This document shows positions 53,990 through 54,026 of a stretch of DNA of 64,000 bases, piece by piece. The position numbers and the translations under genes are program-made. The first letter of the stretch is position 1; each line of letters begins with the position of its first letter. The notes under the pieces were generated by a model, which saw nothing but the letters and a program-made list of their open reading frames with translations, was not told where the DNA came from and did not search any database. This stretch comes from Escherichia coli (GTDB taxonomy: Bacteria > Pseudomonadota > Gammaproteobacteria > Enterobacterales > Enterobacteriaceae): NCBI RefSeq assembly GCF_003334785.1, contig NZ_QOWV01000001.1; one strand, written 5' to 3'.

Positions 53990-54026
53990 TAAAAAGAAAC
54001 CTCCGCATTGCGGAGGTTTCGCCTTT
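53990..54026. terminator. bidirectional terminator shared by convergent rmf and fabA
   Basis: Hairpin aaacctccg-cattg-cggaggttt flanked by aaaaag on one side and cgcctttt on the other. Confidence 0.75.

Follow-up and report, generated by a model that had tools for sequence, protein, structure and literature searches.

Intrinsic termination of transcription proceeds through a hairpin that forms in the RNA exit channel, acting together with a weak rU:dA hybrid in the active site of the polymerase. A tonB/P14 bidirectional terminator was reportedly described by Postle and Good in 1985, the TransTermHP work of Kingsford in 2007 is said to recognise a bidirectional class, and overlapping bidirectional terminators were reportedly the subject of a 2019 study by Ju and colleagues. 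The two sites considered here, one in the rmf/fabA spacer and one in the matP/ompA spacer of Escherichia coli, present the same G+C palindrome, the same A and T tracts, the same short convergent spacer and the same overlapping ends on both strands as known bidirectional intrinsic terminators, and no substantial difference was found. They likewise correspond to catalogued K-12 termini of ompA, matP, rmf and fabA (Adams 2021; TRS 2023; Conway 2014), the sequence being the same and the coordinates agreeing after an offset. Both the type of feature and the individual 3' ends in K-12 are already known, and no literature was found that names the rmf/fabA and matP/ompA sites as 'bidirectional', a search combining 'ompA terminator' with 'bidirectional' having given nothing specific. 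On the analysis reported below, it is highly probable that each spacer contains a single intrinsic (Rho-independent) terminator of the canonical kind, active in both orientations.

Results

The window and its two convergent spacers

The window, by which is meant the whole 64,000-nucleotide stretch of DNA that was analysed, contains the following four relevant genes, as defined by the list of open reading frames and by RefSeq annotation (for rmf, that of identical genomes and MG1655):

53811-53978, + strand: rmf coding sequence (ribosome modulation factor, 55 amino acids), TGA stop codon at 53976-53978
54048-54566, - strand: fabA coding sequence (172 amino acids), stop codon at 54048-54050
56581-57033, + strand: matP coding sequence (150 amino acids), TAA stop codon at 57031-57033
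57109-58149, - strand: ompA coding sequence (346 amino acids), stop codon at 57109-57111

Thus rmf (+) converges upon fabA (-) across a spacer of 69 bp, and matP (+) upon ompA (-) across one of 75 bp. A prior sequence-only reading had placed one hairpin at 53990-54026 and the other at 57065-57095, and these positions, the gene names and the spacer sizes were all found to be correct when compared with the sequence, the open reading frame list and RefSeq. The window derives from an E. coli strain other than K-12, but every base of both spacers is the same as in K-12 MG1655, so that the published K-12 3'-end maps apply directly (MG1655 coordinate = window + 961904). The region from 53700 to 57400 is 100% identical to that of E. 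coli FORC 064, ML35 and others, and none of the 5,426 complete E. coli genomes lacks it.

E. coli genomes carry each spacer as a single copy (median 1, maximum 2), and an origin as REP or other repeated extragenic palindromes was consequently rejected. A sequence scan detected no promoter-like sites in either spacer, leaving a DNA-level reading without support. Megablast matched the rmf/fabA spacer in every one of the 5,426 complete E. coli genomes, but the K-12 form of the matP/ompA spacer (57034-57108) in only 2,995 of them; the latter spacer is polymorphic within E. coli, and a second form (locus L003) retains the hairpin core with a longer T run.

Anatomy of the two hairpins

The component parts of each site, the tracts being read from the sequence, are as follows:

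53996-54020, both strands: hairpin 1, GAAACCTCCGC-ATT-GCGGAGGTTTC, a perfect 11-bp stem with a 3-nt loop, present in rmf and fabA transcripts alike
53991-53999, + strand letters: A-rich tract AAAAAGAAA upstream of the hairpin 1 core, from which the - strand encodes the fabA-side U tract UUUCUUUUU
54017-54028, + strand: rmf-side U tract TTTCGCCTTTTG, in which the T run is broken by GCC
57073-57088, both strands: hairpin 2 core, CCCCGC-AGCA-GCGGGG, a 6-bp all-G:C stem with a 4-nt loop
57065-57072, + strand letters: A8 tract upstream of the hairpin 2 core, from which the - strand encodes the ompA-side U8
57089-57095, + strand: matP-side U tract TTTTTCT (T5 then CT)

The first site (53990-54026) reads TAAAAAGAAACCTCCGCATTGCGGAGGTTTCGCCTTT. 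Its full stem has AAAAA on the 5' side and GCCTTTT on the 3' side, and surrounds a G+C-rich core of 7 bp, CCTCCGC/GCGGAGG, at 54000-54016. Downstream of that core the sequence is TTTCGCCTTTT, and the rmf-side tract in RNA, UUUCGCCUUUU, is a poor one consisting of three U residues followed by CGCC. The second site (57065-57095) reads AAAAAAAACCCCGCAGCAGCGGGGTTTTTCT, and in free RNA its stem can be lengthened by A:U pairs to 57068-57093. The A-run upstream and T-run downstream that had been claimed for both hairpins are accordingly present in the sequence, with the T run of hairpin 1 interrupted by GCC.

Each inverted repeat reads the same on both strands, and the hairpin made is therefore essentially the same whichever gene the polymerase comes from. 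An A run on one side serves as template for the U tract of the opposite strand, and the transcript would be expected to be released 6-9 nt past the stem.

Predicted folding energies were -19.3 kcal/mol on either strand for hairpin 1 (z from -5.1 to -5.4), and -17.6 (+ strand) and -19.5 kcal/mol (- strand) for hairpin 2 (z about -5). Considering both hairpins on each strand, the values spanned -17.6 to -19.5 kcal/mol and z from -4.9 to -5.4, none of 200 shuffles being as stable. The stems lie 17-39 nt past the four stop codons. A terminator scan detected hairpin 1 on both strands; hairpin 2 was not reported by the built-in scan of the window, because the extension of the stem through A:T pairs in that scan consumes the T run, and not because the site is weak.

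Several other candidate features were considered and set aside. The CCUCC/GGAGG of the hairpin 1 stem, which is anti-Shine-Dalgarno-like and Shine-Dalgarno-like respectively, was regarded as a coincidence; RMF itself binds near the anti-Shine-Dalgarno region of 16S rRNA. A small hairpin directly after the matP stop codon, CTGACGAAAGTCAG at 57034-57047, is not conserved in E. albertii, in other genera or in a second E. coli lineage, and was dismissed as either lineage-specific or due to chance; its TGAC/GTCA half-sites loosely recall those of matS, the site bound by MatP. On the + strand the Rfam family STnc370 (RF02064) matched 57029-57098 with 32.2 bits, below its gathering threshold of 54, and gave no match in the orthologous Salmonella locus (L010). 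The likeness lies in a shape comprising hairpin, linker and terminator on the + strand, but the 5' hairpin is not kept even in E. albertii. No Rfam family scored above threshold at either hairpin, and the sub-threshold matches were to the terminator ends of unrelated sRNA and leader families.

Tail scores and a census of the window

Weighted T-tail scores were 5.35 for ompA, 4.05 for fabA, 4.00 for matP and 2.75 for rmf, whereas random 15-mers from the window have their 95th percentile at 2.06 and their 99th at 3.06. A U-rich tract was consequently recorded on the fabA, ompA and matP sides, and only weakly on the rmf side.

By a criterion of our own, we counted as a site any hairpin with 5 bp or more of G+C core, 5 or more A among the 9 nt before it and 5 or more T among the 9 nt after it. 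Five such sites occur in the 64-kb window, compared with 0.25 +/- 0.49 (maximum 2) in 40 dinucleotide shuffles. Only two of the five, those of rmf/fabA and matP/ompA, occupy a convergent-gene setting. The other three A/T-flanked hairpins (18856-18873, 25470-25496 and 43907-43928) follow mukB, asnS and pyrD, and are co-directional.

Seven convergent gene pairs occur in the window, three of which (ycbJ/elyC, zapC/ycbX and sxy/yccS) overlap and so have no spacer, and among these seven the canonical A/T-flanked type of hairpin is confined to rmf/fabA and matP/ompA. In the 42-bp pepN/ssuB spacer (31297-31338) there is a common 12-bp G+C-rich hairpin, CCGAATGGCGGC...GCCGCCATTCGG, devoid of A/T runs or a U tract, and the pepN 3' end has been mapped just ahead of the ssuB stop codon (Adams 2021 Term-seq, PMC7815308). 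The gloC/aspC spacer (22361-22581) has one hairpin per gene, and the palindromes between them, GCCGGATG..., are putative REP elements.

A separate observation made elsewhere in the window concerns elfC (37278-39912), which contains a perfect 34-bp tandem duplication, CAGCACCAGGCGCAGAGAATACTCGTGTGGCGAA, as two copies at 39403-39470; the duplication is lacking in E. coli ML35. It splits the gene into open reading frames at 37278-39491 and 39400-39912, and this fimbrial usher gene is probably a frameshifted pseudogene in the strain concerned.

Mapped 3' ends in K-12

Published Term-seq and TRS data place the relevant in vivo ends as follows:

53993 (MG1655 1015897), - strand: fabA 3' end, Term-seq, count 91,588 in LB at OD 0.4, ending ...GGAGGUUUCUUU, 7 nt past the core stem (PMC7815308)
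53988 (MG1655 1015892), - strand: fabA 3' end, TRS Primary, range 1015886-1015901 (PMC10687069)
54022/54023 (MG1655 1015926/1015927), + strand: rmf 3' ends, 'primary', Term-seq, ending ...GGAGGUUUCGC(C) (PMC7815308)
54025 (MG1655 1015929), + strand: rmf 3' end, TRS Primary, range 1015922-1015933 (PMC10687069)
57073 (MG1655 1018977), - strand: ompA 3' end, 'primary', Term-seq, count 24,586, on the final G of the stem, devoid of a U tail (PMC7815308)
57060-57064 (MG1655 1018964-1018968), - strand: ompA 3' ends, TRS Primary, within or just beyond the U8 (PMC10687069)
57095-57098 (MG1655 1018999-1019002), + strand: matP 3' ends, TRS Primary, range 1018995-1019006, 7-10 nt past the stem (PMC10687069)

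The matP end does not appear in the Adams 2021 Term-seq tables (PMC7815308). Together these data establish where RNA ends in vivo on either strand, each of the four genes having its 3' ends at the edges of a hairpin (Adams 2021 Term-seq; TRS 2023), and so bear out the earlier claim of termination on both strands. The Term-seq check that had been proposed for it was in effect already in print, and 3' ends lying outside the hairpins, named at that time as the outcome that would count against it, are contradicted by the K-12 maps.

The ends crossed each hairpin from both sides, 53993 (-) being paired with 54022/54023 (+), and 57060-57073 (-) with 57095-57098 (+). The convergent transcripts therefore overlap, by approximately 31 nt for rmf/fabA and about 32-35 nt for matP/ompA, and two-way use of a hairpin does imply that convergent mRNAs will end within each other's terminator and overlap. 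Each site thus combines what is expected of an intrinsic terminator, namely a G+C-rich stem-loop past the stop codon, a U-rich tract, and in vivo 3' ends a few nucleotides after the stem, with what is expected of a bidirectional one, namely one hairpin between convergent stop codons, flanked by an A tract on one side and a T tract on the other, and overlapping 3' ends on both strands.

Such overlapping 3' ends of convergent genes are also the signature of a group of collision-dependent terminators (Wang, Ju and Liu 2022 preprint), and it might be argued that head-on collisions of converging polymerases, rather than hairpin plus U tract, drive termination here (as modelled by Ju et al. 2019 and Wang et al. 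2022). Collisions could certainly aid the weak sides, matP and rmf, which face heavily transcribed partners. However, the group in question shares the convergent-gene location but is described as lacking intrinsic features (Wang 2022), whereas both present hairpins are textbook examples with hairpin and U tract in either orientation. Expression is moreover so lopsided that few ompA polymerases would encounter one from matP, and the fabA and rmf ends were called in different growth conditions. End usage tracks expression: the fabA end was called in LB at OD 0.4 only, and the counts for the rmf end climbed from 1,179 (LB, OD 0.4) to 9,626 (LB, 2.0) and 16,068 (third condition) in the other two conditions (PMC7815308). 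A collision-driven origin is accordingly considered extremely improbable, and a two-way intrinsic terminator remains the preferred reading.

The position of the ends relative to the stem is relevant to a second alternative, according to which run-on transcripts are stopped by Rho further downstream, or not at all, and are then trimmed back to the hairpin by 3'-5' exonucleases; trim-back of Rho-dependent transcripts has reportedly been described by Dar and Sorek in 2018. The ompA Term-seq end, which falls on the very last base of the stem and has no U tail, is what such processing would leave, and that tail-less end at 57073 does look like trimming or a mapping artefact. By way of contrast, the Term-seq ends of rmf and fabA retain a tail of 6-7 nt past the GGAGG core, as intrinsic release predicts, and the rmf ends by Term-seq and TRS taken together lie 6-9 nt past the core stem.

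Strength, read-through and Rho

The TRS stop measure, which is based on read-through and approaches 0 when read-through is full, was about 0.999-1.0 for ompA, 0.974-0.996 for fabA and 0.993 for rmf, with matP lower at 0.86-0.97 (PMC10687069). Growth-dependent read-through of rmf into fabA has been recorded by Conway 2014, Figure 2 of which displays the rmf/fabA/matP/ompA region itself. The description of both terminators as 'strong' in the sequence-only reading therefore holds in full for the ompA and fabA sides, and to a lesser extent for rmf, with its broken U tract and its read-through, and for matP, with its lower stop measure.

For ompA, DirectRNA-seq coverage in 800-nt windows dropped from 770 to 38 (4.9%) when no bicyclomycin was added, and with the drug from 730 to 86 (11.8%) (PMC7815308), so that the share of coverage past the end rose 2.4-fold under Rho inhibition. 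The top Rho position on the ompA side, 1018970 (-), has a modest Rho score of 2.39 (p = 9e-6; PMC7815308). Termination on the ompA side is thus strong, not absolute, and appears not to be purely intrinsic, Rho probably clearing some of the ompA transcription that would otherwise continue antisense into matP. No entry for the rmf, fabA or matP ends was present in the Rho table when coordinates beginning with 10158, 10159, 10189 and 10190 were searched (PMC7815308).

Rho-sensitive read-through downstream of ompA is a further point on the side of processing, but coverage past that end is only some 5%, and even under Rho inhibition only about 12%; conserved U tracts would in addition be superfluous if all that were needed was a block to exonucleases. 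Processing as the general source of the ends is consequently very unlikely, although some of them may stem from exonucleolytic trimming to the stable hairpin, and we infer that release is driven by the hairpin. After such release the A tract could pair with the U tail and so lengthen the stem, a pairing which probably protects the 3' end against exonucleases. The few per cent of transcripts that read through would be removed by Rho, perhaps with help from oncoming polymerases.

A separate Rho termination region lies at 1015276 (-), approximately position 53372 of the window, antisense to pqiC (ymbA) and some 620 nt beyond the fabA terminator on the fabA strand, with a Rho score of 7.15 (PMC7815308). 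It may be a stop point for fabA read-through or for antisense transcripts.

Conservation across the Enterobacterales

A scan with the Rmf protein, using one genome per species, gave 80 Enterobacterales loci, from which the convergent spacer was recovered in 74 sequences for rmf/fabA and 66 for matP/ompA. Across some 65 Enterobacterales species the stems were kept with compensatory changes, and the loops (3-7 nt) varied freely.

The hairpin 1 stem, GAAACCTCCGC/GCGGAGGTTTC, was unaltered in most Enterobacteriaceae, and its core, CCTCCGC/GCGGAGG, was still present in Erwinia and Pantoea; its loop of 3-6 nt was different nearly everywhere. Compensatory variants included GAAGCCTCTGC..GCAGAGGCTTC and GAAGCCACCGC..GCGGTGGCTTC. 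In an alignment of 67 sequences 98.5% of cells were paired, compared with only 39-55% in slid registers, and two-sided changes affected 5 of the 11 pairs. Flanks with four or more A and four or more T were present in 52 of 74 sequences, the A tract being kept in most species.

Equivalent data for hairpin 2 placed the core CCCCGC/GCGGGG in about 60 of 64 aligned sequences, around free loops of 3-7 nt, with replacement stems in Mangrovibacter (CCCAC/GTGGG) and others. Here 99.9% of cells were paired in the 64 sequences, 3 of 11 pairs were compensatory, and flanks of A7-A9 and T6-T8 were present in 63 of 66 species, A7-A9 being found in nearly all of the 64 that were aligned. For both hairpins the covariation score was reached by none of 500 shuffles, and slid registers paired in 39-70% of cells. 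The best hairpin per spacer was picked, which favours pairing, a bias limited by the evident homology of the stems. Conservation with covariation is thereby established at both sites, and the compensatory changes have preserved base pairing in each, as expected of an RNA structure under selection.

Watson-Crick covariation is blind to which strand's RNA is selected. In three Klebsiella-group sequences a U:G pair of hairpin 1 on the + strand would correspond to a C-A mismatch on the - strand. The better U tract was that of the minus-strand side (fabA, ompA) at both hairpins, in 53 of 60 species for hairpin 1 and 54 of 64 for hairpin 2, and the two directions are accordingly unequal, with fabA and ompA the better served.

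Hairpin 2 lies at a median of 19.5 nt from the ompA stop codon (interquartile range 19-20) and at 20-213 nt from that of matP; for hairpin 1 the interquartile range of the distance to the rmf stop codon is 21-24 nt, and the distance to that of fabA runs from 14 to 542 nt. From these sequence comparisons each hairpin is evidently anchored at a fixed distance to one gene, rmf in the case of hairpin 1 and ompA in that of hairpin 2. These data are pertinent to a third alternative: that each hairpin evolved as the terminator of that one gene, with use by the partner being incidental and not an 'economical arrangement' favoured by selection, and with the far-side tract kept since, as an upstream A tract, it strengthens the gene's own terminator through extension of the stem. 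The fixed distance of hairpin 2 from the ompA stop codon and its variable distance from that of matP accord with this, as do the near-fixed distance of hairpin 1 from the rmf stop codon and its variable distance from that of fabA, a matP/ompA spacer in which the ompA-proximal part is conserved and the matP-proximal part is not alignable, and an excess of ompA read starts over those of matP of about 150-fold (19 vs 0.12; TRS, PMC10687069). On the other hand, the 3' ends of the partners map at the hairpins with high stop measures, and the better U tract of hairpin 1 belongs to fabA and not to the anchoring gene, rmf. The proposal is in any event an evolutionary nuance rather than a different mechanism, and is compatible with a two-way terminator; as an account in its own right it is judged unlikely, though less so than either of the alternatives considered above.

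Possible cross-talk between rmf and fabA

The Term-seq count at the 3' end of fabA, the 3'UTR of which occupies 53993-54047 on the minus strand, is on a par with those of ends inside ompA (PMC7815308), and TRS flags fabA as an outlier in which 3'UTR read starts of 15-22 are 8-10 times the 1.9-2.4 of the coding sequence (PMC10687069). This suggests a stable fabA 3' fragment or 3'UTR-derived RNA, complementary over approximately 31 nt to the 3' end of rmf.

Those two hints, the count of 91,588 and the excess of 3'UTR read starts, together with the rmf read-through of Conway 2014, prompt a more speculative proposal, that rmf/fabA is a deliberately leaky, growth-phase 'time-shared' terminator at which a fabA 3'UTR fragment of about 60 nt and antisense RNA from rmf permit mutual regulation. 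In growing cells the fabA side would be dominant, giving an abundant fragment of that length, and during slow growth or in stationary phase the induced rmf transcript would pass its weak U tract and enter fabA as antisense RNA. We hold this to be very doubtful indeed. If it were true, the rmf and fabA mRNAs would regulate each other, and would thereby link ribosome hibernation to the shutdown of unsaturated fatty-acid synthesis.

Discussion

Bidirectional intrinsic terminators are textbook entities, and the value of the present two beyond annotation is small. The modest addition made here is comparative, and consists of the conservation of the stems, the freedom of the loops, a range extending from Escherichia to Pantoea and Erwinia, and the anchoring of each hairpin to one gene. 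As such, the rmf/fabA and matP/ompA hairpins are clean examples of long-lived terminators constrained from both strands, and could possibly serve as compact two-way insulators for synthetic constructs.
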